The notes: generated from the sequence alone by a model not told the origin. A stretch of DNA of 64,000 nucleotides from a bacterium (GCA_963675755.2 CAXXMD010000003.1:1536001-1600000); one strand, 5' to 3'. Positions 4,325 through 28,400 are shown, numbered from the stretch's first letter. Made by a program: numbers and translations.

Positions 4325-4368
4325 AAAAACCTAATTGATTGTGAATAATAAAAAAAGAGTGGCATACT

Positions 4369-11361: not shown

Positions 11362-11390
11362 CAAAATATACTGTTCTTATTAAATAGATG

Positions 11391-11419
11391 TTGACATTGG
11401 TAAAGTGAACTCATATATT
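11391..11419 (+). promoter_or_regulatory. sigma70-type promoter upstream of the STAS gene
   Basis: TTGACA-17 bp-TATATT. Confidence 0.6.
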
Positions 11420-11487
11420 ATCTGATGCCCACAGTTTACGGGGCGTGAAATAAAAGATAATAGGGGTTTATACGGAGATATATTTAA

Positions 11488-12165
11488 ATGGAAGGTATTC
11501 AGTTGTCTGTTGACAGGGCTGGAACAAACAACAGCATATCTGTTATTAAGGTTGGCGGATACATTGACACAACCACATCAGCCGAATTGGAACACGCATT
11601 AAACGGTTTGATCAAAGCCGGATCTTATATGATCGTTATTGACCTGGGAAGAGTTGATTATGTAAGTAGTGCGGGTTGGGGAATTTTTATCAGCGAAATT
11701 AAAGGTATTCGTGAAAAAAGCGGCGATTTAAAGCTGGTCAATATGGTACCCGAAGTTTATGAAGTCTTTGAATTACTTGAATTTCATCATATATTAAAAG
11801 CATTTGACAGCATTCAGGATGCTGTTGCGGATTTTGAAAAAAATCTTGTAGGTTCCGTTTCAGAGCCCAAGAAAAGCAAACCCGAGCCACAGCCAGAGAG
11901 CAAACCGATTCAGCAGGATATTCCTCCTGTGCAAACAGAGACCAAACGTCCTTCACAGGCTGCCAATTTGTCGATTGACGAAAAGATACAAAGAATCGTT
12001 GCGGCCGAGCCTGATGCAAGCACCGTTCAGATCGTACGTATGTTAAATACATCTCAATATGGATTTGTCAAAATAGGCTGGTTTGGTTTACGTCGTGCGC
12101 TTAAACGTCTGGATCTGGACTCGAAACAAAAAAGAAAACTCCATGCCATTACTTATGATGGTTAA
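11488..12165 (+). CDS. STAS-domain anti-sigma factor antagonist (RsbV/SpoIIAA-like) with C-terminal HTH-like extension
   Basis: GYIDTTTSAEL...IDLGRVDYVSSAGWG (phosphoacceptor Ser motif); Pro/Lys linker, then a helical tail. Confidence 0.88.
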   Translation: MEGIQLSVDRAGTNNSISVIKVGGYIDTTTSAELEHALNGLIKAGSYMIVIDLGRVDYVSSAGWGIFISEIKGIREKSGDLKLVNMVPEVYEVFELLEFHHILKAFDSIQDAVADFEKNLVGSVSEPKKSKPEPQPESKPIQQDIPPVQTETKRPSQAANLSIDEKIQRIVAAEPDASTVQIVRMLNTSQYGFVKIGWFGLRRALKRLDLDSKQKRKLHAITYDG

Positions 12166-14501: not shown

Positions 14502-14588
14502 GGAGAGATGCCAGAGAGGCCGAATGGGGCGGCCTGCTAAGCCGTTGTAGGGGTTTCCCTACCGAGGGTTCGAATCCCTCTCTCTCCG
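14502..14588 (+). tRNA. tRNA-Ser(GCT)
   Basis: GGAGAGA/TCTCTCC acceptor stem; GCGGC-CT GCT AA-GCCGT anticodon arm; long variable arm GTAGGG/CCCTAC; GTTCGAATC. Confidence 0.95.
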
Positions 14589-14609
14589 CTAAAGAGACGG
14601 GAAAAAGAT

Positions 14610-14984
14610 ATGAGAATTTTAATTAAACGCTTGGAAATATGGTCTGTTGTTAAAATTGTCTTTTTATTATCTTTAATCCTCGGTTTCATTTTTAGCTTGC
14701 TTTACGCCGGATTTATTATGGTTATGAGCAGTTTTATGGGTGCTATTGGCGGAGAAGACATTACACCCATGTTACCGGCAAGCGGATTGTTAGCTATCCT
14801 TATTATTTTTGGAGGAACAATCAGTTTTGCCTTTTTTTATACCATCAGCGCTTTGATATTTTCATCGTTGTACAATATCTTTTCACGTATGGTTGGCGGC
14901 TTTACAATCGAAGCCGAACAGCTTGATAAAGATCTGGACGTCGTTTCCCAAACATATATATTGGATCAAGACAACAAAGAATAA
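14610..14984 (+). CDS. Small membrane protein, DUF3566-like
   Basis: IKRLEIWSVVKI start, two hydrophobic segments, LYN.FSRMVGGFTIE end. Confidence 0.6.
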   Translation: MRILIKRLEIWSVVKIVFLLSLILGFIFSLLYAGFIMVMSSFMGAIGGEDITPMLPASGLLAILIIFGGTISFAFFYTISALIFSSLYNIFSRMVGGFTIEAEQLDKDLDVVSQTYILDQDNKE

Positions 14985-14987
14985 GTT

Positions 14988-16481
14988 ATGACAAGAACGA
15001 GATTCGCGCCGAGTCCCACAGGTTTTGTTCACATCGGTGGACTGCGAACAGCACTGTACAATTATCTGTTCGCAAAAAAACATGGCGGGACTTTTATTTT
15101 GCGCATAGAAGATACTGACCGCACCCGCTTTGTAGAGGGTGCAACCGAAAACCTGATTTCCGCCCTGAACTGGGCCGGTCTGGTTCCTGATGAAGGTCCC
15201 GAAGCCGGCGGAGATTTTGGCCCCTATTTTCAATCTGAACGTACCGAGCTGTACAAAAAATATGCTCAGGAGCTTTTGGATAACGGCTATGCGTATATCG
15301 CCTTTGATACGCCGGAAGAAATGGATGAAAAGCGAAAATCCACCGGTAACCCGCATTTGAAATATGACGCTTCCATCCGTAATGAAATGCGCAACAGCTT
15401 GAATCTGGATAACGCCCAGGTACAGGAACTGATGGATGCGGAAACGCCACATGTCATCCGATTAAAGATTCCCGAGGACCGTACCTTTACATTCAAAGAT
15501 ATTATCCGTGGCGAAGTTTCTTTCAAGAGCGAACAAGTAGATGACCAGGTATTGATCAAATCTGACGGATTCCCCACATACCATTTGGCAAACGTAGTAG
15601 ATGATCACCTGATGGAGATCACGCATGTGATCCGTGGTGAAGAGTGGCTCAGCAGTGTTCCCAAGCATATCTATCTGTATGAATGCTTTGGCTGGCAGGC
15701 CCCTGAAATGGCGCATCTGCCGCTGATTCTGAATCCGGACAAATCCAAAATGTCCAAGCGCGACATCCAGTCGCTCGACGATTTGCCCCAAGGCAAAGTA
15801 GACCCGGATGTGGCCTCTTATGTGAAAAAAGGATTCGAACCGGAAGCGATCATAAATTATATAGCCTTACTGGGTTGGAATCCCGGTGAAGGCGATGAGC
15901 GACAGATCTTTACAAAAGAAGAGCTGGTGAACGAGTTCTCGCTAGAGCGCGTAAACAAGGCTGCGGCTATTTTTGATCTGCGCAAGTTGGAATGGGTAAA
16001 CGGCGAGCACATTACCCAACGTGATACAGCAGAGCTGGTTGAACAGGTAAAACCCCAACTGGCTGAAAAGGGACTGGATTATGGTTCCGAAGCGTATTTG
16101 TATCAAGTTGTGGACCTTTTAAAATCCCGCATGTTGTTTGTGGACCAGTTTGCCGTACTGGGGGAATATTTTTTTAAAGACCCGGAACAATATGATCCGC
16201 AGGTCGTAAAAAAAAGGTGGAAAGACGATTCAGTAAAATTAATACTTGAATTTGTTGATGAAATTGTTAAATTAGATGTGTTTGATAAAGAGTCGATTGA
16301 AAAAGCCCTCCATGTGGTGACCGAGCGAAATGAAGCCGGTACAGGTCGACTGATACACCCGGTACGGTTAGCGGTTTCCGGAATGGGTGTAGGTCCGGGA
16401 CTCTACGATATGTTGGTAGTCCTTGGTAAAGAAGCGGTGACAAGACGGCTGAAAGCAGGAGCTGAAGCCATTACACGTTGA
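14988..16481 (+). CDS. gltX: Glutamate--tRNA ligase
   Basis: RTRFAPSPTG..HIGG, LRIEDTD, YHLANVVDD, IRGEEW, KMSKR. Confidence 0.97.
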   Translation: MTRTRFAPSPTGFVHIGGLRTALYNYLFAKKHGGTFILRIEDTDRTRFVEGATENLISALNWAGLVPDEGPEAGGDFGPYFQSERTELYKKYAQELLDNGYAYIAFDTPEEMDEKRKSTGNPHLKYDASIRNEMRNSLNLDNAQVQELMDAETPHVIRLKIPEDRTFTFKDIIRGEVSFKSEQVDDQVLIKSDGFPTYHLANVVDDHLMEITHVIRGEEWLSSVPKHIYLYECFGWQAPEMAHLPLILNPDKSKMSKRDIQSLDDLPQGKVDPDVASYVKKGFEPEAIINYIALLGWNPGEGDERQIFTKEELVNEFSLERVNKAAAIFDLRKLEWVNGEHITQRDTAELVEQVKPQLAEKGLDYGSEAYLYQVVDLLKSRMLFVDQFAVLGEYFFKDPEQYDPQVVKKRWKDDSVKLILEFVDEIVKLDVFDKESIEKALHVVTERNEAGTGRLIHPVRLAVSGMGVGPGLYDMLVVLGKEAVTRRLKAGAEAITR

Positions 16482-16511: not shown

Positions 16512-16582
16512 TGGGGTGTCGTCCAGCGGCAGGACACATGACTCTGGCTCATGGAACCGGGGTTCGAATCCCTGCACCCCAG
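16512..16582 (+). tRNA. tRNA-Gln(CTG)
   Basis: TGGGGTG/CACCCCA acceptor stem; CATGA-CT CTG GC-TCATG anticodon arm; GTTCGAATC. Confidence 0.95.
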
Positions 16583-16592
16583 CACAATACAC

Positions 16593-16617
16593 AAGGTCGG
16601 TATATCCGGCCTTTTTG
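16593..16617 (+). terminator. Rho-independent terminator after tRNA-Gln
   Basis: AAGGTCGG-TATAT-CCGGCCTT followed by a T-run. Confidence 0.7.
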
Positions 16618-16672
16618 CGTTTTTGGGGGAACTGTGTTGCACCTCCCTGAGGTATCATAAAAGTATTACAAA

Positions 16673-16703
16673 GATCGTGACAGAGATTATCTCCGTCACG
16701 ATC
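16673..16703. repeat. 31-bp palindromic repeat, copy 1
   Basis: GATCGTGACAGAGA-TTA-TCTCCGTCACGATC. Confidence 0.9.
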
Positions 16704-16728
16704 AAATGAAAAGGGGGATAATAAACTG

Positions 16729-17049
16729 ATGAAATGGCCCGATACAGCAGACGGAGATGTTTTTAGAAGACTTGAAGGCGATAACTTTGATTTTACCAAG
16801 GAAGCCACTATTGACATAAACATTGATTTTGATCATTGGCCGTTATCTACTGAATGCATTCAATTTATGATAGCCCATTGGCCTGGTATTGAGATTATTG
16901 AACCCGAAGAAGATGATTATGGTTGGGCAACATTCCAAATCCGGACTCTACTCACTTATGAAATGATAGTAGATTATCAAATTAAAGTTTCAGAAATGAT
17001 ATCTCCCTATGGAGGAAGATGTGAATCATGGGGGTTGTTCAGCTCTTAG
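16729..17049 (+). CDS. Ribonuclease E inhibitor RraB-like small acidic protein
   Basis: WPDTADGDVFRRL...FDF...IDINIDF...YGGRCESWG pattern. Confidence 0.6.
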   Translation: MKWPDTADGDVFRRLEGDNFDFTKEATIDINIDFDHWPLSTECIQFMIAHWPGIEIIEPEEDDYGWATFQIRTLLTYEMIVDYQIKVSEMISPYGGRCESWGLFSS

Positions 17050-17283
17050 TTAGAAGTTAACCAAAACCTAAATAATTCTATCTGTAACAAAAACAAGTAC
17101 GGCTACGAGGTTGGATTTCCAGCTTTTTTTGTTTTGGGGGAAACAATTTTCTTGGGGATATAAAAAGTTGAATTATGTTCATTTTAATATTGACATTGAC
17201 GCTGGTAATTATTATCTATAATAAATCATTCCATTTAGGGGTTATTAGAGTTATAAAAAAGTTTTAAAGAATTGGAGGGTAAG

Positions 17284-18378
17284 ATGAATCGAGTATGTTT
17301 ATTGCTCATGGTGTTTGTATTGGTATTCACATTTTCATGTGAGAAAAGAGATACAGTTGTAAACGCTGTATATCAAGCGGATCAACTGCAATCAATCACA
17401 AATTCATCGACTGAGGATCTTGGTACACTGATTTTTGAATCTGATCCAATAATCAGGGGAAAGGGTGCACCTGTAACTGAAGAAATTGTCCTTCCGGGTT
17501 TTGATCCTAATAATAATTATGTATTGGTTTTAACCAATGGAGATGAAAACAAGGGGAGTAAGGTAACCAGCTGCTTTGTGATTTTCAATGGAGATACTAT
17601 TATATGTCCTATAGAAATCACAAAAGACACAGAAACGATTGTTAAAGAATTGACAATCGCTGATGAAAACGATTTATCTGCAAGAGTTATGGGTAAACCG
17701 GATAGCTATATAATACTATCGATTTACGAAGAATGTGCTCTTTGCCCACCAACAGTAACTGATATCGATGGAAATGTTTATGAAACTGTTCTGATTGGTG
17801 ATCAGTGTTGGATGAAAGAAGATTTAAATGTTGCACATTATCGAAATGGTGATCCAATTCCTAACGTTACGGATAATTCACATTGGAGTGCTTTGAGTAC
17901 TGGTGCATATTGTTATTACGAAAATAATTCAAGTAATGCTGAAGATTATGGGGCAATGTACAACTGGTTTGCTGTCAACGACGAACGTAATCTTTCTCCG
18001 CTTGGTTGGCACGTGCCTACAGACGAAGAGTGGAAAAAACTTGAAATGTTCCTGGGTATGAGCACAAGTGAAGCAGATGGTTCCAGTTGGAGAGGAACAG
18101 ATGAAGGAGGAAAATTAAAAGAATCAGGTACATCACATTGGTATAGTCCGAATATTGGTGCTACTAATGAAAGTGGATTTACGGCACGTCCTGGAGGCAA
18201 TCGTGTTTATCATGATGGTACATTCAATAGTATGGGATTGTCTGCTGGTTATTGGTGTTCTGGTGAGAGTAGTGATAGTGAAGGCTGGTTGCGATCATTG
18301 AGTCCAGATAATGCACAAATTCACCGGTCCCCTTATCCTAAAAATCAAGGTTTGTCATTAAGGTGTGTTAAAGATTGA
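17284..18378 (+). CDS. Lipoprotein with C-terminal Fibrobacter succinogenes major paralogous (FISUMP) domain
   Basis: Lipobox FSC; VTDIDGNVYETV.IGDQCWM, YG.MYNW.AV, P.GWHVPTDEEW, GLSLRCVKD; GGAGG RBS. Confidence 0.88.
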   Translation: MNRVCLLLMVFVLVFTFSCEKRDTVVNAVYQADQLQSITNSSTEDLGTLIFESDPIIRGKGAPVTEEIVLPGFDPNNNYVLVLTNGDENKGSKVTSCFVIFNGDTIICPIEITKDTETIVKELTIADENDLSARVMGKPDSYIILSIYEECALCPPTVTDIDGNVYETVLIGDQCWMKEDLNVAHYRNGDPIPNVTDNSHWSALSTGAYCYYENNSSNAEDYGAMYNWFAVNDERNLSPLGWHVPTDEEWKKLEMFLGMSTSEADGSSWRGTDEGGKLKESGTSHWYSPNIGATNESGFTARPGGNRVYHDGTFNSMGLSAGYWCSGESSDSEGWLRSLSPDNAQIHRSPYPKNQGLSLRCVKD

Positions 18379-18386
18379 TAATTAAT

Positions 18387-18427
18387 TTTTTGATCTCTAT
18401 TTGACTCTCGTCTAATAGAGATCAAAA
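18387..18427. terminator. Hairpin terminator after the FISUMP gene
   Basis: TTTTGATCTCTATT...AATAGAGATCAAAA inverted repeat. Confidence 0.6.
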
Positions 18428-18457
18428 TGGGTAAATTAAAGGAGATTATTAGAAAAG

Positions 18458-18664
18458 CTGGATCATGGAACCAATGGGGCCGCAGGTCCGCCCACCGGCG
18501 GAACTTGTCCGCCCGCTGGCGGATTCGAATCCCTGCACCCCAGCACAATACACAAGGTCGGTATATCTGGCCTTTTTGCGTTTTAGGGGGAACCGTGTTG
18601 AACTTCCCGGATGTGTTATACAAGTATTACAAAGATCATGACGGAGATCATCTCCGTCATGATC
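18458..18664 (+). repeat. Direct repeat of tRNA-Gln 3' half plus downstream flank (att-like), interrupted by a double-hairpin insertion; includes palindrome copy 2 (18634-18664)
   Basis: CTGGaTCATGGAACC...TTCGAATCCCTGCACCCCAGCACAATACACAAGGTCGGTATATC matches the tRNA from 16544 onward; similarity continues through the palindrome. Confidence 0.9.
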
Positions 18665-18874
18665 AATATTTCATAAATACGTTAAAATGGAATGGTACGA
18701 TCCGGATTGGGGCAGTAAGATTTAGTAAAAATTTTTAAAGGTGATTATGGGGAGTAATGTTGGTGTTTCTTAGATAAGCCCCGGCCACGAGGACGGGGGT
18801 ATGGACAATGGACTGCTATAAAGAATCATTTGCTCAATTTTGGTGAATAGAAATGTTAGGTTTAATAATACAGA

Positions 18875-19588
18875 TTAAAATCCATCACACAAATCCATTC
18901 TAACTGCCAAGTGAAGTGATGATAAGAATTCAGTGGTTTTTGATAATGTATCTAAAATATCTTTTAGTGTGTCATAATCATAGATGAATGTATCAATGAT
19001 TTCGTCATCTTTATCTGACATAACAAAAATTTTTGATGAACGTTTGTCAGTATGGCTTTGTTTTATCACTGCTTCTGTGGCAATTGATTTCATTGAGGAT
19101 TTCATTTCATCTAATTCGGGACTTGTTAGAATTGGATATCTAAAAAACGTACTTCTCTCATCAACTTTATTTATTTTTTTAATCATTTCTAAAAGATCAT
19201 CAGGTACTTCCCAAATTGTTCTTGTATGCTTCTCAAGGGGTTCTTTGTATGTAATAAATAGTTTGAGCACATATTGATATAAAAACTCAATGTTGTGAAT
19301 TTTAGTTAGAGGTCTCCAATTACCTTTTACAAGGATTTCTGGTTTGTCAGAATATTTTTTCTGACTTGTGATAATCTTAAAGGTCTTGTGAAATACAGTT
19401 ATGATTGATTTTAGATATAATTCAATTGAATGTCTAAGCAAATAGCATATTGGTAGTTTGATATTGTACAATTTGTCAGTTTCTTCAGAAGATGATAAAA
19501 GTTTGGATGCTGCATCTCTAAAAGAGTCAGCAGTTGCACCAAAGCCCGAATCGAAATGCTTGTTTATAGGTAAGAAAATATAATGCAT
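18875..19588 (-). CDS. Hypothetical protein, HEPN-like
   Basis: PICYLLRHSIELYLK, KIHNIEFL and FFRYP resemble HEPN-fold proteins; AT-rich. Confidence 0.55.
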   Translation of the reverse strand: MHYIFLPINKHFDSGFGATADSFRDAASKLLSSSEETDKLYNIKLPICYLLRHSIELYLKSIITVFHKTFKIITSQKKYSDKPEILVKGNWRPLTKIHNIEFLYQYVLKLFITYKEPLEKHTRTIWEVPDDLLEMIKKINKVDERSTFFRYPILTSPELDEMKSSMKSIATEAVIKQSHTDKRSSKIFVMSDKDDEIIDTFIYDYDTLKDILDTLSKTTEFLSSLHLAVRMDLCDGF

Positions 19589-19625: not shown

Positions 19626-19816
19626 AATCTCTGCATCACACAAGGTTGGATTTCCAGCCTTTTATTATTTAAGGAGCTGCAGTTGCTTGGTGGACCACTG
19701 GCCCATCATTTGAAAAACAGTTGATTCGAATGATCGTGACGGAGATCATCTCCGTCACGATCAATACTGTGGTTTTGTTTATGTGAGTCCCGGCCACACA
19801 GGCCAGCCTATGGACT
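19626..19816 (+). repeat. Degenerate module: tRNA remnant, terminator, palindrome copy 3 (19732-19762), CCCGGCCAC box
   Basis: AATCTCTGCATCACACAAGGTTGGATTTCCAGCCTTTT; GATCGTGACGGAGA-TCA-TCTCCGTCACGATC; GTCCCGGCCAC...TATGGACT. Confidence 0.8.
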
Positions 19817-19817
19817 T

Positions 19818-20405
19818 TTAATACCCATCGTTGGGGTGCGTTTTTATTTTATAGTTTTCAAAGAATTTCTTTCTGTCTTTCGGCCTTTTAAGCAATTGAA
19901 GTTCAGCATGTAGCAATTCCTTTACCTGCTCATATCCATTTCTTTCAATTTTAAATACTCTCCTAAAGCTCTCCGATAAATCACTTGTACATCCAATAAT
20001 ATTTATAGTCGGATATTCTGCTATATAAATTCCCCAATTCTTACTCTGGCCGTGAACAAACCAATGGGGTATTCCCATTCCAAAATATTCATCAAACTCG
20101 TGAAATTTGTTGTCAAATTCTTTTAGGTCACTCTTTACGGAAAAGGTAGCTTCAAATGGTATTTTTCTGTCTGTTATCGTTGCTCCGATGTTTTCTTTAA
20201 CGAAAAACCTGGATTCTCCAATTTCAATAAGGAGTTTTATAAATTTATTATATTCTTCATCATCTTCAACCAGATGCCCACCCACAGTTAGCAGAAAATC
20301 GAAATCTTGGTTTATGAAAACTTGTTCTGGTGGACAAATAACTTTGTCAGGAGATTGAGCAACGTTAAATATTTCTGATGTATTTGTCATTTTTAAATAC
20401 ACCAT
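19818..20405 (-). CDS. Hypothetical protein
   Basis: 195-aa ORF with GGAGG upstream on the minus strand; no recognisable motif. Confidence 0.7.
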   Translation of the reverse strand: MVYLKMTNTSEIFNVAQSPDKVICPPEQVFINQDFDFLLTVGGHLVEDDEEYNKFIKLLIEIGESRFFVKENIGATITDRKIPFEATFSVKSDLKEFDNKFHEFDEYFGMGIPHWFVHGQSKNWGIYIAEYPTINIIGCTSDLSESFRRVFKIERNGYEQVKELLHAELQLLKRPKDRKKFFENYKIKTHPNDGY

Positions 20406-20674
20406 AATTTTTGAAAATGTATTTTTATATTTATACCTCCCAATAGGCTGTATAAAAGCATTTTAATATATGGAATAAGAAATAAATAAAAATGAAATTT
20501 TACTTTGGGTATGATTTTAGTTAATCATATTTTTGGAAAGAGTCAATAGGAAAATATACATTTTTACTAAAAAACTGTGTAGAGGGTCAAGGACTGTACT
20601 ATCTTGAGTGTATCTGTGGTTAAAGTTTTTATCTATATCTTACTTAAGCTGTAGCGTCCGTATTTTATCTAAAA

Positions 20675-20705
20675 GATCGTGACGGAGATGATCTCCGTCA
20701 CGAGC
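20675..20705. repeat. 31-bp palindromic repeat, copy 4
   Basis: GATCGTGACGGAGA-TGA-TCTCCGTCACGAGC. Confidence 0.9.
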
Positions 20706-20745
20706 GGGATTGTTATTTGTTCACGTTTCGAGACTCGTATCATAT

Positions 20746-20778
20746 CACCTCCCGGAGGTCCCGGACCTCCGGGAGGTG
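20746..20778. repeat. Second REP-like perfect palindrome
   Basis: CACCTCCCGGAGGTC-CCG-GACCTCCGGGAGGTG. Confidence 0.8.
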
Positions 20779-20965
20779 TGCCAGACTTGAAAAATGTGAA
20801 ACAATTGGTTTACATACACGTAGAGAGAAAAAGAAGGTAAATGTATTCATTGCACAAATACAGGATAGCATACAGGGATTGATAAAAGATAAATAGTTTA
20901 TAACAAAGTCAAAAAAACAAGATGGAATCGCTGAGAGTTTCTCGCGTGATTCCGGGGATACGAAT

Positions 20966-21682
20966 ATGTCAAAAAGAGTTGAACATAAAGCGCCTCAAGC
21001 AAACCTGGTTCGCCAATGGATCCGTTTAATAGTGGTGTATCTCTTGATCCCTTTGGTTCTGTTGGTGTGCGGAGGCGATTTTGGTTGGTGGCAGGCATGG
21101 ATCTATGCTTTGCTGATTGTTGCCGCGGGTATTGGCGGACGTATTTGGGCGGAACGGCGGCATCCGGGGTTGCTGGCAGAACGACAAAACATGGAAAAAA
21201 TCCAAAGTGCGAAAGCATGGGATAAAGTGCTTGCTCCGCTCATGGCGCTGAGTGTAAGCTTTCCACTGGTTATAGTGGCGGGATTGGATCACCGCTTTGG
21301 TTGGTCACCCGCATTGCCGTTATGGCTTGTTATTTTCGGTATCATCCTGATAACGCTCGGATACGCTTTCTCCATGTGGGCATTTGTAGAGAACCGATTT
21401 TTCTCCAGCGTTGTGCGTATTCAAGCGGATAGAGGTCATGTGGTGTGTGATAGCGGTCCCTATCGACTGGTTCGGCATCCGGGTTATTCCGGAACGATTT
21501 TGCCATTGTTGGGTATTGTGCTGGCCCTGAGCTCCCTGTGGACACTCGTTCCGGCTGCTGTAGCACTGATCATCTCGGTGATCAGAACCGCGTTAGAAGA
21601 CCAAACATTGCAGCAAGAGTTGCCAGGGTATAAGGAATATACGCAGCGCGTACGCTACAGGCTGTTTCCAGGGATTTACTAA
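20966..21682 (+). CDS. Isoprenylcysteine carboxylmethyltransferase-family (ICMT/PEMT) membrane protein
   Basis: ENRFFSSVVRIQ.DRGH.V...GPYRLVRHPGY; ED..L..EL.GY.EY..RVRYRL.PGIY. Confidence 0.88.
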   Translation: MSKRVEHKAPQANLVRQWIRLIVVYLLIPLVLLVCGGDFGWWQAWIYALLIVAAGIGGRIWAERRHPGLLAERQNMEKIQSAKAWDKVLAPLMALSVSFPLVIVAGLDHRFGWSPALPLWLVIFGIILITLGYAFSMWAFVENRFFSSVVRIQADRGHVVCDSGPYRLVRHPGYSGTILPLLGIVLALSSLWTLVPAAVALIISVIRTALEDQTLQQELPGYKEYTQRVRYRLFPGIY

Positions 21683-21771
21683 TAGGCCCTTAATTTTGTG
21701 ACTGTTGGTATACTGGGAACTCATCCGGATTTAAATAGACTCTCTAAAAGAGAACTGATAATCTAAATCCA

Positions 21772-22809
21772 TCACTCCCGGGGTTTTGCAATCATCATGT
21801 TCAGATACGCTGCAAAGTCTTTTGCAACACCATCCTTTTGATTGATGTAGGTTTGCATGTGTTTGTTCTCATCGGGAATCCATTTACATCCTTTATCAGG
21901 ATCAAAGTCTAAATAGCCGGTTCCGCTGTTTATCAAATAATCGCCAACGCCTTCAACCGCATAATAAACCGTGGCCAGGTCCCAGCTTGGCCTTTGGTCA
22001 TCAAGCGTTTTCTTGCCATACCACCAAAGCCAGTCCCGATAGGCGGTACGGATGATATTGCCGGCAGGTGTCTGTTTTAAGGATTTACCGGTCATCACAT
22101 CAGCACCGGCATCCACAAAAACCATAGGCACCGGTAAATTGTCGATTAGATATTTTGTAAAGGGAGCAGTGCCGTTTTTAAAGAAATTCCAGTCTTGTGT
22201 GTATTCTCTTTTTTTATTGTTTGCGCCAAGCGCACCCAAAGCCACCCAGCGACGGACTTTGGTTCGGACCAGTTCCAATCCGCTCAAAGGCGTTATGGCA
22301 TCTCCTTCCGAAACCAACAGATCATACAATCCCTTGGTATGGCCCACGGTAATATAGGTCACGCTATGGTCCGGCTGTTCTAAAAGTAATTTCCTGTTCA
22401 GTAGTGTTTGTTCAACAGCATCGGTGTTGGATATGATGGTATTGCCGAAAGCATCGGTGTCTTTTACCAGCTTTTCCGCACTCATTTTATCCACGCTATC
22501 ACCAACATCGTCTTTATAGTTCGCACCCACGGGTATCTCGGGCCGGCCACAATAGATATTGATTGCCTGCACAATTCCCGCACCATAGGGTACTTTGCCC
22601 GAGCTATATATAGATCCAAGAATTTCAACCTTGCCCATATCCGCATAGGTATGTAACAGGGCCAGCGCTCCTACATCATCACAATCTGATCCCATATCCG
22701 TATCGAAAATGATTTTGACAGGTTCTGTAATCGATTTTAAATCCGTTTGTGCTAAAACACCAAAATGAGGGATTAACATCAAGAGTAATAAAAGACTGAT
22801 TTTTTTCAT
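21772..22809 (-). CDS. Secreted nucleoside hydrolase-like protein
   Basis: Signal peptide; IIFDTDMGSDCDDVGALA; RPSWD. Confidence 0.8.
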   Translation of the reverse strand: MKKISLLLLLMLIPHFGVLAQTDLKSITEPVKIIFDTDMGSDCDDVGALALLHTYADMGKVEILGSIYSSGKVPYGAGIVQAINIYCGRPEIPVGANYKDDVGDSVDKMSAEKLVKDTDAFGNTIISNTDAVEQTLLNRKLLLEQPDHSVTYITVGHTKGLYDLLVSEGDAITPLSGLELVRTKVRRWVALGALGANNKKREYTQDWNFFKNGTAPFTKYLIDNLPVPMVFVDAGADVMTGKSLKQTPAGNIIRTAYRDWLWWYGKKTLDDQRPSWDLATVYYAVEGVGDYLINSGTGYLDFDPDKGCKWIPDENKHMQTYINQKDGVAKDFAAYLNMMIAKPRE

Positions 22810-22846
22810 GTAGAAGCCTCGATATTCTTGTTCAGTAAAAAATCCG

Positions 22847-24358
22847 TTATGGTTTCTGCGGATTAAACTGAGAGCAGCGGAACGTGTGTTTTTCAAGTTC
22901 CGTTCCTGCCTCATTTATCAGACGAAATGTTACTGTGGGATCCGCTTTTTTCATATCAAAAGTGAATTCACCAAAAGCGATCAATCCGCCGGCGTAACCA
23001 AAAAGCTGTGCCGATTTGTCCGGGGCAAAAGCATCCGGACCGGGAACACCGCCCAGGGTTGCGGCTTCGAATTCATGCAGCGCAAAACCCGATGGCCGTT
23101 CAATCTTGAAACTGCGTGCGCCGTGACGGTCGCCACTCAAAAGCAATACACCGCCTATCTGGTTCTCTTCAATAAAGTCATAGATCTCTTCTCGTCCCGG
23201 AATGTCCCAACTGCCCCACGAGTCTTTTGCTTTGGACATAAAGTCGCTCCACATGGTCCCGCTGGTCAGTATGATAAACCGGGCTTTGGACGCCTTGAGT
23301 GTATTCTTGAGCCATTGCATTTGCTCATCGCCAAGGTAGGATCCTCGCTGTTCCCGTTTTTGCCAGTTTCGGCAAGAGCGGGTATCGAGCATGATGATTT
23401 CCACATCGCCAATGACGGTGTTGAAATAGATCCCGTGGTCTGTGACTGATGTCTGGGGATTAGCCCAGTTTTCCTGCCAGAGTTTCCGCAGCGCGTTGCG
23501 CTGAGTGTTTGTTATCTGACCTTTTTGAAGTCCGGATTTGTCATTGTTCAGATAATCGTGATCATCCCAGCTGGTATAGACCGGAATGTTGGCAGAAAAT
23601 GTCCGCCACGGTTTTGAAACGTCGCGTAATAGATAATCCGCATAGTGCATATTGGAGTTGGTTTCCCGGTCATCCACTGCGATATCACCCAATAACAGCA
23701 TGGCGAGATTGCCGCGCTCTACAATCAACCGCATCAAATTGGGATTGTGTACACCGATCTTATGATAGCAAGAACCAAAGGCAATGCGCATGGTGTCTGT
23801 GGTATTCGGTTCAGGAGCTGTGCGAAAAGAGCCATTACCTAAAACAGCATCTGCATTGTTAACGATTTGGTAGAGGTATGGGGTGTTTGCCGACAATCCG
23901 GTAATCCTGACCCGGGTGGCCGCACCGGGCTGGGTGACCTCGACATTGAAATCCTTTTGCTGTTTTTCTTCCTTATCTGTTATTTTTACGGTTAATGCTT
24001 CTGCGTGGACCGCACGGAACCAGAGGGTAATACCGCTCTCAGAAACATCACCCAACATCGGTCCGCTGATGAGGGCAAGTCCGGCTTTTTTAGCTGCCTC
24101 AATGATCCCTGGATGGGTAAGTGTTGCGTCAGGAGTTTCGACAAGGATTTCACGGGCTGATAGGTAAAAAGTACGTCGCGCTTCCGGCAGGCGTTCAAAA
24201 CTGTCCAAAAGCAGTGTATCAATTTCCAGGCTGCCTACGTGTGCTTGTTTGAGGGATACAATATGGGTCGCCGTATCCGGTGTCGATTCAGCGTAGATGG
24301 ATGAGGTAAACAAACCCCAACATAGCATGAGGCAAAGTATATTCAAACGAAAGTTCAT
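22847..24358 (-). CDS. Alkaline phosphatase D (PhoD)-family metallophosphatase
   Basis: IAFGSC, LLGD, WDDHD, LDTR, LSGDRH motifs; signal peptide. Confidence 0.88.
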   Translation of the reverse strand: MNFRLNILCLMLCWGLFTSSIYAESTPDTATHIVSLKQAHVGSLEIDTLLLDSFERLPEARRTFYLSAREILVETPDATLTHPGIIEAAKKAGLALISGPMLGDVSESGITLWFRAVHAEALTVKITDKEEKQQKDFNVEVTQPGAATRVRITGLSANTPYLYQIVNNADAVLGNGSFRTAPEPNTTDTMRIAFGSCYHKIGVHNPNLMRLIVERGNLAMLLLGDIAVDDRETNSNMHYADYLLRDVSKPWRTFSANIPVYTSWDDHDYLNNDKSGLQKGQITNTQRNALRKLWQENWANPQTSVTDHGIYFNTVIGDVEIIMLDTRSCRNWQKREQRGSYLGDEQMQWLKNTLKASKARFIILTSGTMWSDFMSKAKDSWGSWDIPGREEIYDFIEENQIGGVLLLSGDRHGARSFKIERPSGFALHEFEAATLGGVPGPDAFAPDKSAQLFGYAGGLIAFGEFTFDMKKADPTVTFRLINEAGTELEKHTFRCSQFNPQKP

Positions 24359-24493
24359 CTAGTATGTCCTTTGGTTGTTTTATAGGCTAACAGAGTAAAG
24401 GTTAATTAATTATATTTTTGTTTAAGAATCAATAAAAAAGAATGTGTCATGTTGAGGTTGGAATTACTGATTTGTATATCGGGAGACGGACTT

Positions 24494-24528
24494 TTTATCG
24501 TGACGGAGATTAACTCCGTCACGATAAA
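24494..24528. repeat. Palindromic repeat, copy 5
   Basis: TTTATCGTGACGGAG-ATTAA-CTCCGTCACGATAAA. Confidence 0.88.
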
Positions 24529-24585
24529 TGAACACTGAGAAAGGATTATATGATAAGCGCGTTTAAACGCATGACAGACAATGGA

Positions 24586-25665
24586 TCATTTTGCGCTGTT
24601 TTGATTAATAACATAATGGGTTTCTGTTGGGAACGCCATTTCAATACCGGCTTCATCCAGGTTGCGTTTGATGCCCATATTGACCTTATGAACAATGATC
24701 TTCCAGTTACTGCTGTCCGTGATCCAGTAGACAATTTCCAGATCGAGAGAAAAAGCGCCAAAGTTGGTAAATCTGACCTCGGTATCGTCGCTGTCTATAC
24801 CTTCTACCTCGGCAATGGTTTTTTTAACAATATCTATGGCTTTATCCATATCATCTGCTGTTGTTTCATAGACCAGACCAATGTTCACCACCATCCGGCG
24901 TCGCTCGCGTTTGGAATAGTTTTCCACAACGGTATCCACAATAGCGCTGTTGGGGATAACTACATGCGTACCGCCTACGGTTTTGATGCGGGTGCTTCGC
25001 ATACCCACTTCAAGTACAGAACCGGATTTGCCGCTGATTTCAATCCAGTCGTCAATCTGGAACGGCTTGTCCCAAAAGATGGTAATACCACCGATAATGT
25101 TCTTAACTGCGTCCTGAGCTGCCAGAGCAATGGCCAAACCACCAATACCAATACCGGCCAGAATGGACAATATATCATATCCCAGATTAGACAGGATGAT
25201 GATACCTCCCAGAACCAGAATAACCGTTTTCACGGATTTACGGACGATTGGCAGAATCTGGTCGTCAAGTTTGCTTTTTGATTTTTCGGTAATAGGTTCG
25301 ATGTAAGCGGTGATCAGCATGTCAAAAAACCGTACCAGAAACCAGGTAGCTGTAATTGCAAGCAGGGTAATCACTACATTATGAAAAAACTTTACTCCGC
25401 CTTCATTCAGTGTCAGAAATCGGGCGCCAACCCAAACACCACCACTGACGATCAGCAGAACAATGGGTTCTTCTATAATATCAATGAGATAGTCATCGAA
25501 TTTGGTTTTTGATTTTAGTGCAATTCTACGCAATGAAGTTTTAAAGAAAAAATAGACAATTCTGCCTAATATAATTGACAATACAATGGCGCCGCTTAGC
25601 AGTAGATACTGACCGACTGAATTATTGAACACTGTATAGTCAATAACATTCCGGATAGATTCCAT
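24586..25665 (-). CDS. Small-conductance mechanosensitive channel (MscS family)
   Basis: AGIGIGGLAIALAAQD..KN..GG, KPFQIDDWI, GMRSTRI, IPNS, IEMAFPT. Confidence 0.92.
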   Translation of the reverse strand: MESIRNVIDYTVFNNSVGQYLLLSGAIVLSIILGRIVYFFFKTSLRRIALKSKTKFDDYLIDIIEEPIVLLIVSGGVWVGARFLTLNEGGVKFFHNVVITLLAITATWFLVRFFDMLITAYIEPITEKSKSKLDDQILPIVRKSVKTVILVLGGIIILSNLGYDILSILAGIGIGGLAIALAAQDAVKNIIGGITIFWDKPFQIDDWIEISGKSGSVLEVGMRSTRIKTVGGTHVVIPNSAIVDTVVENYSKRERRRMVVNIGLVYETTADDMDKAIDIVKKTIAEVEGIDSDDTEVRFTNFGAFSLDLEIVYWITDSSNWKIIVHKVNMGIKRNLDEAGIEMAFPTETHYVINQNSAK

Positions 25666-25987
25666 ATGAACTCCCTTTTTATTAAAGAATGGATTCCAAT
25701 AGTTTAGATAGATTTATATTTAAGAAAGGTTTTCTTGCATATCAGGACTAGCGTCCCTTTATTTATATCATTCTTTCCTTTAAAAAATATAATGTATGAA
25801 AAAAAAATATCAGGATAAATATTTATTTTATTAATTACACTGACAGATTTACAAGTTGGTAAACAGGGTACTATAATGAATGAAAAATTTTGAATAGTGG
25901 ACTGCTTAGCCGGGGAATCGGGTTGTAGAGATTGCTGTTGGGAGGATAGGCCGTACCAAACAGCCTTTATAAAAAGTTAATTCGAAA

Positions 25988-26018
25988 GATCGTGACGGAG
26001 ATACTCTCCGTCACGATC
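25988..26018. repeat. 31-bp palindromic repeat, copy 6
   Basis: GATCGTGACGGAGA-TAC-TCTCCGTCACGATC. Confidence 0.9.
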
Positions 26019-26041
26019 ATACTATAGGTAAATATACAGCT

Positions 26042-27103
26042 TTAGATTAAAATATTACGTGCATAGTTAACACATGTCCTGGTTTCTTTGACAGAATTTG
26101 ACCAGGCAGCGATTCTGTATTCCAGTTCAATATCACAATAGATTTGGGGGTATTTGTTTTTGATCAATAACAATATTTCTTCCAGTGGTGTATCACCCTG
26201 TCCCCAAACCTGGTTTGCATTGGGTGGTTCTGTATTGAGACCGGTTTTATCTTTGATGTGCAAACTGTAAATCCGATCATGATATTTTTCAATAAAATCA
26301 CAGGGATTAAGTCCGGTTGAACCCCAATAGTGGCCAACATCAAAATTCAGCATAATACCAGGTGAAACGGCAAGAATGTCATCTACGTTGAAACCTTCTT
26401 CTGCATATTGATAATGATTATGCATGACAGCATACAAACCGTATTTTTCAGCAATCGGGCCCATTTTTTTGGCGGTTTCCAGTCTCATTTCTTCCGTGAT
26501 TCCCATTACATTCATGGCTTTGTTAGCTTTGAATGCATAGTCAATTTCTTCCGGTGACCAGCTAGCTGGTGTCCATTTCATAAGATGAATGTTTACTCCG
26601 GCATCCCGATACATTTGTGCAAGTTCAGCAAATTTATCCATAGGAGCGGATAAACGCCACTGTTTTAAGGCTTCTCTTGAATCTGCGGCCTGTTTTTCAA
26701 GCTCTGCATATTCTTCTTCGGTCAAATCCCGTTCTTGTTGCGCTCTGTACCGTTCATATCCTCTTTGCCCGGGTCTTGGTGGGGCACTTTTTAATTTGGG
26801 TGCGCCACAAAATTCTTCAGCAAGGTTTGTCTGCCTGAATTCTATGGAACTTAGGCCTGCTTCAATACATGCTTTTAGCAGTTCGTCCACATTTGATGGA
26901 TTGATTCCACGAATACTATAAGTTGAGGCGCCTATCTGTACACCGCCAAATTTAGAGTTGGGTTTTCCGACACCGGTGGCCATTGGTGTTGGTTTGGAAG
27001 AACAACCTGTAGTCAATACACCCGCAGTCAAGACGGTTGCTGCGGTGCCTGCTCCAATAAATTGGCGTCTTGATACGTTACCTTTTCCCTTGTTTTTTTT
27101 CAT
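26042..27103 (-). CDS. Tat-exported sugar phosphate isomerase/epimerase (xylose isomerase-like TIM barrel)
   Basis: SRRQFI twin-Arg signal; HNH, NFDVGHY, LHIKD, WGQGDTP, IELEY. Confidence 0.85.
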   Translation of the reverse strand: MKKNKGKGNVSRRQFIGAGTAATVLTAGVLTTGCSSKPTPMATGVGKPNSKFGGVQIGASTYSIRGINPSNVDELLKACIEAGLSSIEFRQTNLAEEFCGAPKLKSAPPRPGQRGYERYRAQQERDLTEEEYAELEKQAADSREALKQWRLSAPMDKFAELAQMYRDAGVNIHLMKWTPASWSPEEIDYAFKANKAMNVMGITEEMRLETAKKMGPIAEKYGLYAVMHNHYQYAEEGFNVDDILAVSPGIMLNFDVGHYWGSTGLNPCDFIEKYHDRIYSLHIKDKTGLNTEPPNANQVWGQGDTPLEEILLLIKNKYPQIYCDIELEYRIAAWSNSVKETRTCVNYARNILI

Positions 27104-27340
27104 ATTCGACCCTTTAAATTTGGATTGAAAATTATATTGAGATTAATTATGTTCGCATGGATGAAAAGTTTTATTTTTTAAAATACATATACTTTTTAAT
27201 ATATACAATATCTTGTCTCATCGCAATAAAATAAACATTTTTTCGCCAGGAGATTTTAATCACCGGTTGAGGTTTAATCCTATATGTTCTTTAAAGAGTT
27301 GCTATTATAAATGAGGCTGACTGCTTGATAACGGACGAAT

Positions 27341-27558
27341 TTAAATCCCTGCGTCCTGGCTCAATGTCTAAATAAACTGAAATAAACGATCGTGACGGAG
27401 ATTGTCTCCGTCATGATCAATCTTGTAAAACATGGTCTAGTTAATATCCTGACAAAATGAGAAATGTAAAATAACGGATCTGGAGAGTAATGATTGTGTT
27501 AACAGATTTTTTATAATTCATAGGTATCAACCCCGGCCACAAGAGCCGGGTTAGGGAT
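27341..27558 (+). repeat. Degenerate module: tRNA remnant, palindrome copy 7 (27388-27418), spacer, CCCCGGCCAC box
   Basis: TTAAATCCCTGCGTCCTGGCTCAAT resembles TCGAATCCCTGCACCCCAGCACAAT; GAGTAATGATTGTGTT resembles GAGTAATGTTGGTGTT near 18752. Confidence 0.75.
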
Positions 27559-27560
27559 TT

Positions 27561-28400
27561 TTATTTCTTTTTCATAAGCTTGTAATGAATATCAGCAAAG
27601 AGTTCATGTCCCACAGATTCCGAATGGCATGGTGTGCAATTCATCTTGCTGCTTATATTTGCCACTTTACCTTCTTTTCCATGACAGGTTATACATGTTG
27701 TAACGGGTTCGTTTGCATTCCCGGATGTCATAAAGTCATTGTTAAAAAATTGATTAAGCATGGTAACTGTCTGGTATACCACATCAGCGGTCAACCTGCG
27801 GCAGCGTTCCTTTTGTTCTTTAGATTTAATTGCATATCCACTTGTATTACTCCAGTTTGTGGTTGATGCATGGCAAAGTACAGAATTAGAGAGTGATGTA
27901 GGTGGAGTGAATTCCAGTAAAGGTTTAACCGGACTAAATTGAGGAAGCGGGGTTTTTTCGTACCATTGATACAAACTTTCTATCAGGTAGTCTTGATTGG
28001 GTTTGTCTTTTACTAACAAGCCAATAAGGGCGGCCGCTCCATTAAGTGCACCACACACCGTACCATATCCACCAATACCTCCATGTCCGTATTTCATCAT
28101 TTCGCAGGGGAAATTACTAAATGGCTCACCCACTTGATCAGCCAGTTTTGAGACAACACTTTTAAAGGTGGCGTACATACAGCTTCCCTTGTCATAGCTA
28201 TTATATGCCAGCTCGGCTGCAGCCAAAGGATCTAATTGACTATAGGGCCAGGAATGTTCTTCATCATTATGGGTCAATTTTTTGGGAGATTCTGCGGGAG
28301 AAACTTGAGGTTTAAAAGCAGTAGTGAGAGTGACCACACTAACAGCACCACCCCCTACAATCGCTCCGCTTAATATTTTAAATAATTTACGACGCTCCAT
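27561..28400 (-). CDS. C-GCAxxG-C-C family protein / split-Soret cytochrome c-like precursor
   Basis: MERRKLF Tat-like signal; GSCMY, GTVCGALNGAA, VLCHAS, ERC.RLTAD; two CxxCH motifs (CITCH, CTPCH). Confidence 0.82.
   Translation of the reverse strand: MERRKLFKILSGAIVGGGAVSVVTLTTAFKPQVSPAESPKKLTHNDEEHSWPYSQLDPLAAAELAYNSYDKGSCMYATFKSVVSKLADQVGEPFSNFPCEMMKYGHGGIGGYGTVCGALNGAAALIGLLVKDKPNQDYLIESLYQWYEKTPLPQFSPVKPLLEFTPPTSLSNSVLCHASTTNWSNTSGYAIKSKEQKERCRRLTADVVYQTVTMLNQFFNNDFMTSGNANEPVTTCITCHGKEGKVANISSKMNCTPCHSESVGHELFADIHYKLMKKK

Follow-up and report, generated by a model that had tools for sequence, protein, structure and literature searches.

Are the genes that follow a tRNA-Gln gene in an uncultured bacterium held as cassettes, in the manner of an integron? 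This question is raised by a 64,000-nucleotide stretch, called the window here (G000:C3:1536001-1600000), of a 40% GC genome (G000) with contigs C1, C2 and C3. In it several minus-strand genes end close to copies of a hairpin-bearing repeat, which we call the module. A preliminary description of the window proposed that the stop codons of these cargo genes sit at a fixed position against the right end of the module and that the genes have been captured precisely at their 3' ends, as integron cassettes abut attC. We compared the window with its counterpart in G001, a sister genome of the same genus that is present as one contig (G001rc denotes reverse-complement coordinates). The stretch after tRNA-Gln is probably a flexible gene islet, in which a composite unit of about 290 nt has been copied several times, with relics of repetitive extragenic palindromes (REPs) and of a REP-associated tyrosine transposase (RAYT) gene carried along and with unrelated cargo between the copies. 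It behaves somewhat like a cassette array, and it is not an integron.

A composite repeat downstream of tRNA-Gln

Within about 290 nt, the module joins the last 24 nt of tRNA-Gln, the terminator of that tRNA gene, a single REP palindrome, the final 18 codons of a dead RAYT gene and, ending in ATGGAC, a GC hairpin (Table 1). The tRNA end, the terminator and the palindrome are present twice, as a 146-nt direct repeat (16560-16705 versus 18521-18666, 89.7% identity) that begins in the T-loop of the tRNA at GG(G/A)TTCGAATCC and brackets a RraB-like and a Fib_succ_major gene. The single G001 copy of this repeat is a mosaic of both G000 copies and so does not locate a crossover within it.

We aligned G000 18521-18812 to its G001 ortholog and searched the genome and the G001 loci by nhmmer with the resulting module profile of 295 positions. 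The profile recovered module 3 (27385-27557, positions 111-289, E = 2.1e-9), module 2 (19628-19766, positions 10-152, E = 3.2e-8), a copy of the tRNA end in the sister genome (G001rc 10064-10176, E = 2.4e-8), and the 3' end of Y1d, a RAYT gene on contig C2 (positions 141-240, E = 2.4e-6). Window positions 18669-18725 translate as FHKYVKMEWYDPDWGSKI followed by a stop, and Y1d ends in ...FHKYVRTGWYDPDWGD...; this translation and the match to the 3' end of Y1d indicate that the spacer between the palindrome and the hairpin is the tail of a dead RAYT gene. This relic is missing from module 2. Decayed stretches resembling the tRNA end also precede the palindromes of modules 2 and 3, although only one pair of tRNA-end repeats is well conserved. 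On these alignments the parts of the module are identified, its copies are paralogues, and the 146-nt repeats bracket an insert that is missing from G001. Two terminator-like hairpins, at 17107-17126 and 19642-19661 (GAGGTTGGATTTCCAGC...), with a TTTTGGGGGAA-like sequence after them, are similar to one another and to the terminator of tRNA-Gln (16593-16613), and are probably additional pieces of the repeated unit.

A plainer account of the locus would need no special mechanism at all: ordinary REPs and an ordinary 3' hairpin or terminator would accumulate in a poorly constrained, horizontally acquired region, the indels would come independently from the usual decay of an island and from insertion-sequence traffic, and the shared 21-nt spacing discussed below would be a coincidence combined with a local duplication. 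We consider this account rather unlikely, since repeats of the tRNA end and at least three paralogous copies of a unit with several parts are unexpected from decay alone.

Comparison with the sister genome

At 87-94% identity, G001 and the window are collinear, apart from gene-sized blocks that differ at five places in the island. Its tRNA-Gln runs straight into module 1, and the RraB-like and Fib_succ_major block between the tRNA-end repeats is found in G000 only; as in tRNA-targeted islands, direct repeats of a tRNA 3' end bound an insert, and the sister genome has the empty site. Homology at module 1 ends right after ATGGAC (18806 in the window, 1670 in G001rc). Beyond this point G000 has the genes for the 237-aa and 195-aa proteins, and G001 has an Abi_C gene and a gene for an 835-aa helicase assigned by PADLOC to the candidate defence system PDC-S28 (E = 4.6e-282; Abi_C and helicase slot, L020 reverse complement 1691-5134). 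So sharp a break, with different cargo beyond it, speaks against simple decay. At mscS, homology between the two genomes restarts 5 nt before the stop codon. The 195-aa protein has 55 homologs at E<=0.001 among 109 candidates, and its C-terminus aligns with that of 11 homologs, so that its gene is a real, full-length one with its native 3' end. The right end of the module is a real boundary of gene turnover which cargo with native 3' ends abuts, and to this extent the idea of precise capture stands, but the fixed offset and the analogy with integrons fail.

An exchange exact to the nucleotide would also suit a true cassette system, in which a site-specific recombinase supplied in trans would cut out a gene with its 3' hairpin or REP and insert it at the module. 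This recombinase might be of the tyrosine type, with the 31-nt palindrome for a core site (12-nt arms around GATNATC), or else a RAYT/HUH protein acting on single-stranded DNA hairpins. We consider such a system improbable, for reasons given below with the REPs and the integron comparison. A duplication in G001 is also in its favour. Besides the slot at module 1, G001 has additional blocks at three places: between its IUNH-like and PhoD-like genes, at module 4, and within module 3. The block in the module 4 spacer is 1.8 kb long and has a gene for a 381-aa protein with a type IX secretion system (T9SS) sorting signal. In module 3 the REP and the hairpin lie 1.4 kb apart, with a second 381-aa gene between them and a toxin-antitoxin-like pair upstream of the REP. 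The two 381-aa copies form a duplicate (10282-11498 and 15245-16458, 79.5% over 1225 nt) that starts exactly at a REP, which makes a gene-plus-REP unit with its boundary at the repeat. The REP beside the epimerase gene and its 24-nt spacing are conserved in G001.

Several smaller observations concern the same comparison. The small plus-strand pair in G001 (L020 reverse complement 14560-15095) looks by eye like an antitoxin and a PemK/MazF-type toxin. Between the IUNH-like and PhoD-like genes, G000 lacks 1.7 kb of G001 sequence (an alpha/beta hydrolase gene, a 197-aa open reading frame (ORF) and a REP); the breakpoint, 22831/22832, falls at the edge of the G001 REP and takes away about 25 codons from the start of the IUNH-like gene, and in G000 the IUNH-like (21772-22914) and PhoD-like (22847-24358) ORFs overlap by 68 nt. 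The synteny of mscS in other genera was uninformative at that distance, with three different neighbourhoods in three genera.

The box hairpin and the cargo stop codons

The hairpin at the right end of the module, which we call the box hairpin (CCCGGCC-ACGAG-GGCCGGG, followed by (T)ATGGAC), is intact in G001. Its CCCGGCCAC box occurs exactly, on the plus strand, at 18780, 19789 and 27532. The TTA triplets at 19818 and 27561, both stops of minus-strand ORFs, each begin 21 nt beyond the final C of the box, with TATGGACTT and TAGGGATTT, respectively, in front of them. The mscS stop (TCA, 24586) comes directly after GACAATGGA, with GATAAGC at 24552-24558, and the epimerase stop at 26042 lies 24 nt after the GATC-flanked palindrome at 25988-26018. 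All of these positions agree with the preliminary description; the rule of a fixed position drawn from them does not hold, as it is true of the two 21-nt cases only, and the mscS and epimerase cases were measured from other landmarks. Measured from the final C of the box, the next stop lies at 87, 21 and 21 nt for the three window copies, at 95 nt for the copy at C3:608976, and at 39, 25 and 21 nt for those of G001. When the box copies of both genomes are compared in this way, as had been proposed, their orientation proves constant but their distance varies from 21 to 95 nt. All six independent copies face the 3' end of a gene.

The two 21-nt cases of the window are not independent because they are paralogues, with 24 of 32 positions identical without gaps from the box through the TTA and only 4 of 13 beyond it, and the 21-nt box of G001 is the ortholog of the one at 27561, with gene, box and spacing all conserved. 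The equal offset is thus a matter of common descent of two box copies whose similarity reaches the stop codon; such paralogy would also suit the account without a special mechanism. Nor is the box enriched in the window. At up to one mismatch its 9-mer occurs 8 times in the window versus 6.3 expected, a number reached by 32 of 100 shuffles, and of 21 exact 9-mers genome-wide four form a hairpin, three of these being in the window.

The box hairpin is a putative terminator-like 3'-end element that would be carried with the unit, hence its place 3' of genes. On the gene strand an A-rich sequence follows it, so that the GC hairpin with a T-run of an intrinsic terminator is not found. A metagenome scan with CCCGGCCACRAGRGCCGG gave at least 121 stretches, and DNA was examined for 80 loci with 82 matches. 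All of these listed matches lie on contigs of 47-77% GC and add no related copies, because the contigs are GC-rich and unrelated to the 40% GC genome. In many of these unrelated contigs the hairpin sequence recurs as a canonical terminator (A-tract, hairpin, T-tract), which again would be in keeping with a plain terminator and no special mechanism.

A genus-specific REP family and its RAYT gene

The palindrome of the module far exceeds chance in the window. Its 11-mer arm GTGACGGAGAT has 13 matches in the window versus 0.49 expected, a number reached in none of 100 shuffles, and the short-loop form GATCGTGAC[G/A]GAGAT-N-ATCTC[C/T]GTCACGATC has 49 copies in the genome at up to one mismatch per arm. 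The arms co-vary between copies (GGAG/CTCC versus AGAG/CTCT). By crude ORF calls, 43 of the 49 copies are extragenic (12 in convergent, 24 in tandem and 7 in divergent spacers); of the tandem group, 19 are nearer to the 3' end of the upstream gene, and the distance from palindrome to stop ranges from 7 to about 900 nt. With any loop, the stem GTGAC[AG]GAG/CTC[CT]GTCAC has 108 copies in the genome, of which 47 measure 22-23 nt and 58 measure 32-33 nt, leaving 3 others. An intact RAYT gene, Y1c (177 aa, C3:340671-341201, L037:4671-5201, Pfam Y1_Tnp E = 5.7e-10), is flanked by 24 long-loop REPs, 14 upstream and 10 downstream and mostly about 79 nt apart, with the stem GTGACGGAG/CTCCGTCAC. Its translation contains HFH and YIHYNP, which we take to be the HUH and catalytic-tyrosine motifs of RAYT proteins. 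Of 31 related genomes, two contain the palindrome, and both belong to this genus; among 185,579 species genomes it occurs beyond its own genome only in G001; the exact palindrome had no matches in 2.9 million viral contigs. There is no terminal GTAG on it, CGTC lies inside the 3' arm (CTCCGTCAC), and both ends are flanked by GATC. Judged by its sequence and distribution, the palindrome is a REP, and its stem is that of a REP family which is specific to the genus and has a RAYT gene of its own.

The family resembles known REPtrons in its roughly 100 short, extragenic, genus-specific palindromes with paired stem changes, in its preference for 3' ends and convergent spacers, and in the presence of a Y1/HUH transposase gene inside a cluster of the same repeats, a layout described by Nunvar et al. 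2010 (PMC2817692), Bertels and Rainey 2011 (PMC3116915) and Di Nocera et al. 2013 (PMC3733652). A terminal tag, GTAG or CGTC, is given for REPs in the last of these papers (PMC3733652). The window copies differ in being perfect 31-nt palindromes with a loop of 1-3 nt, without a terminal GTAG and with CGTC inside the stem; they are also concentrated around the origin, and one of them abuts a dead RAYT gene beside a tRNA gene.

The distribution of the palindrome allows another interpretation, namely that it is the binding site of a chromosome-organising or regulatory factor near the origin and that the island is merely rich in sites. Of the 49 short-loop copies, 47 lie on C3 between 0.36 and 2.7 Mb, two on C2 and none on C1. 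Their centre falls on the GC-skew minimum, at about 1.49 Mb of C3, with dnaA at C3:1609043-1609531 (about 1.609 Mb), and the palindromes are perfect, with ends GTGAC/GTCAC. However, the arms co-vary, the long-loop variants share the stem, arrays with a period of about 79 nt flank a RAYT gene, the palindrome is confined to one genus, and the 3' ends of genes are preferred over promoters; a binding site is therefore very improbable.

Exact long-loop REPs number 36 in G000, which has the intact Y1c, versus 6 in G001, which has no intact ortholog; the G001 counterpart of Y1c is a 79-aa open frame only, with 40% identity over 50 residues. The number of REPs may follow the presence of the transposase, a correlation seen across two genomes. 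Other RAYT-like genes of G000 go with other palindromes: Y1b (C3:2392867-2393357) adjoins a different family, TTGCCCGGCACCTCCGAGGTGCCGGGCAA, and Y1d (C2:1359645-1361332) lies near the family CGTGATGCAGAT...ATCTGCATCACG. A fourth palindrome family (CCTCCCGGAGGTC...) is also present in the window, at 20746-20778.

REPs and gene turnover

The relation between REPs and insertions or deletions was examined in 11 regions of G001 (220 kb in all), chosen around REPs and compared with G000, an indel zone being a difference of at least 300 nt. Indel breaks were present at 18 of 24 spacers with a REP and at 37 of 81 without one (odds ratio 3.6, Fisher p = 0.019, for spacers that are not independent). A cassette system could draw on this figure and on the intact RAYT of G000. 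Against the absence of any special mechanism stands the same enrichment of REP-bearing spacers, but the 46% of REP-free spacers that also lie at breaks in these regions suit that account well. A REP was present in either genome at 19 of 35 indel zones and absent at 16, and the junctions fall 0-300 nt from a REP, on either side, with no constant crossover point. This scatter and the 16 REP-free zones indicate that REPs are neither necessary for turnover nor precise sites of crossover, and both observations count against cassettes exchanged by site-specific recombination at the palindrome.

A scan of 22 ORFs in 10 segments specific to G001 gave three IS256-type, one IS5-like and one IS3 transposase, a restriction-modification set with Vsr, an ABC-3C system and various other genes. 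That insertion sequences (ISs) and defence genes fill many inserts would be expected if no special mechanism were at work, and the presence of ordinary ISs in the inserted DNA counts against a cassette system. The three IS256-type copies (Transposase_mut; L024:2338-3561, L027:9741-10964 and L029:7423-8646 in G001) each lie in an insert beside a REP, and the IS5-like and IS3 elements of G001 occupy similar places. REPs are also known as join points of duplications. The ISs beside REPs in G001, and its duplication with a boundary at a REP, resemble both behaviours, REPs having been described as targets of insertion sequences (Tobes and Pareja 2006, PMC1525189). REPs are thus located in plastic spacers and may attract insertions. 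Public assembled contigs of one sample cover the region and break at the REPs, giving no trustworthy joint. One public contig joins 16704 to 19721, both of them REP edges, and skips 3016 nt; with only 26 letters on its shorter side it is indistinguishable from a repeat artefact, and these contigs speak neither for nor against excision.

Gene content of the island

The features of the island are listed in Table 1. PADLOC gave no match for the 237-aa, 195-aa, RraB-like or Fib_succ_major proteins. Rfam, run over 14-34 kb of the window, found tRNAs, one match of a plastid family antisense to a tRNA, and nothing on the modules. The plastid match (psbI-rps4 3'UTR, window 14537-14588, minus strand) is barely above the gathering score and antisense to tRNA-Ser(GCT), and is most likely an artefact of tRNA complementarity.

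Table 1. Features of the island downstream of tRNA-Gln (window coordinates)
Feature	Position	Strand	Evidence
tRNA-Gln(CTG), island anchor	16512..16583	+	ARAGORN, Rfam
Repeat copy 1: last 24 nt of tRNA-Gln, terminator hairpin 16593-16613, REP palindrome 16673-16703	16560..16705	+	alignment, terminator scan
Insert with RraB-like 16729-17049 and Fib_succ_major 17272-18378 genes, both +; not in G001	16706..18520	+	Pfam, G001 comparison
Module 1, full unit: tRNA 3'-end copy 18521-18544, terminator 18554-18574, REP 18634-18664, RAYT-gene relic 18669-18725, box hairpin 18779-18799, ATGGAC 18801-18806, repeated 18808-18813	18521..18813	+	90% identity to G001rc 1381-1670
Cargo, 237-aa ORF, without Pfam or PADLOC match; not in G001	18875..19588	-	
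Module 2, degenerate copy: tRNA-end-like stretch, terminator-like hairpin 19642-19661, REP 19732-19762, box 19789-19797, TATGGAC 19809-19815	19628..19817	+	nhmmer profile positions 10-152, E=3.2e-8
Cargo, 195-aa conserved hypothetical, full length, stop 2 nt past ATGGAC; not in G001	19818..20405	-	
REP 20675-20703 and second palindrome family (CACCTCCCGGAGGTC...) 20746-20778	20675..20778	not assigned	
PEMT-like gene, right of the preceding feature; not in G001	20966-21682	+	
Module 4: REP 24496-24526, GATAAGC 24552-24558, palindrome GCGTTTAAACGC 24559-24570, GACAATGGA 24577-24585, then mscS stop	24496..24585	+	
mscS-type channel gene	24586..25665	-	Pfam
REP, 24 nt from the stop of the AP_endonuc_2 ('epimerase') gene 26042-27103 (-)	25988..26018	not assigned	
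Module 3: tRNA-end-like 27344-27360, REP 27388-27418, decayed spacer, box 27532-27540 (hairpin to 27550), AGGGAT 27553-27558	27344..27560	+	
C_GCAxxG_C_C gene, stop 21 nt past box	27561..28400	-	Pfam

Comparison with integrons

Integron cassette arrays, and the attC clusters without an integrase known as CALINs, consist of small units with a structured repeat 3' of the ORF. The window is like them in its small cargo units, in a structured repeat just 3' of the ORF, in stop codons near the repeat, and in cargo that varies between relatives at the repeat boundaries, and unlike them in having neither IntI nor attC, in mixed orientation and variable offsets, and in a repeat that is a dispersed REP. 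The best score for an integron integrase (TIGR02249) in the genome was 81.4 bits versus a cut-off of 265, and all 14 control genomes were similar; the matches below the cut-off are ordinary tyrosine recombinases in other regions of the contigs. On inspection of the alignments no attC architecture and no GTTRRRY was seen at the boundaries, the module being made of two separate local hairpins together with the tRNA end and the RAYT relic. The cargo is not co-oriented as cassettes are: the four genes named in the preliminary description are all on the minus strand, but three of the 12 ORFs between 16.7 and 28.4 kb (RraB-like, Fib_succ_major and PEMT-like) are on the plus strand, as is the toxin-antitoxin-like pair of G001. 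Leading-strand bias was considered as a cause of the minus-strand cargo and rejected, as the window lies right of the skew minimum, on a side dominated by plus-strand genes (48 to 23).

An integron-like mechanism is thus not borne out, there being no IntI, no attC architecture, no constant offset and no repeat confined to the array. What could still be argued for cassettes is that in three of six junctions the stop lies 0-2 nt from the module end; set against it are offsets from box to stop of 21-95 nt and the lack of IntI or any other recombinase in the window. The form of the idea that needs no integron integrase, in which a gene with its 3' REP or hairpin would be mobilised by an HUH RAYT acting on single-stranded DNA hairpins, or by a recombinase in trans that uses the module of tRNA end and REP, seems to us quite improbable too. 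If true, REPtron parts would make up an integron-like array for gene capture in an uncultured bacterium with type IX secretion.

A probable flexible islet linked to tRNA-Gln

We return to the flexible islet as the best explanation of the locus. Copies of the module would arise by repeated recombination at the end of tRNA-Gln, through the integration and accretion of small islets that lack an integrase and would depend on a hypothetical recombinase supplied in trans. Recombination between REPs or between modules, and the insertion of ISs beside REPs, could later have reshuffled the region. The REP and RAYT relics would simply ride inside the repeated unit.

Tandem islands at tRNA or tmRNA genes offer a close parallel. 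Those at ssrA of Dehalococcoides are bounded by repeats of the 3' end of the RNA gene (PMC3146451), and the formation of cis-mobilizable elements by accretion is treated in a review of integrative and mobilizable elements (PMC5704250). The window is alike in having repeats of the RNA gene's 3' end, from the T-loop onwards, downstream of that gene, strain-specific cargo between them, units without integration genes, and a variable region. Unlike those islands, it has no integrase or integration module anywhere in the array, its units are of 1-3 genes, its repeat continues for 120-270 nt beyond the tRNA end, taking in a REP, a RAYT relic and a hairpin, and one pair of repeats is well conserved while the others have decayed.

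A number of findings weigh against this explanation. Classical tRNA integration duplicates the tRNA end only, whereas here about 120-270 nt of flank past the tRNA end has been duplicated too; because of this flank, homologous or REP-mediated recombination, or re-integration of excised array units, fits at least as well. No recombinase domain was found in the 45 window ORFs scanned, which leaves the recombinase hypothetical, and all four tyrosine-recombinase loci are without a tRNA within 8 kb. Of six cargo stops, three fall within 0-2 nt of the ATGGA(C)/AGGGAT motif, a tighter fit than in ordinary 3' spacers and one that the islet leaves unexplained. A terminator scan called none of the three boxes on either strand, and the hairpin lacks a T-run on the gene strand. 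The REPs around Y1c are of the long-loop form and the window palindromes are short-loop and perfect, so that their assignment to one family is based on the shared stem. The link between REPs and indels is modest relative to the local background, in regions that were ascertained on REPs and with spacers that are not independent. Finally, only two genomes of the genus are known.

Conclusions

The apparent integron-like rule at this locus resolves into known parts, namely a REP family specific to the genus together with its RAYT, a dead RAYT gene next to tRNA-Gln, and repeats of the tRNA end. On the flexible-islet reading, which we hold to be probable, the tRNA-end repeats mark small, swappable blocks of genes, some of them defence genes, and relics of REPs and RAYTs and the accretion of tRNA-linked islets would coincide in one hot spot of an uncultured lineage.

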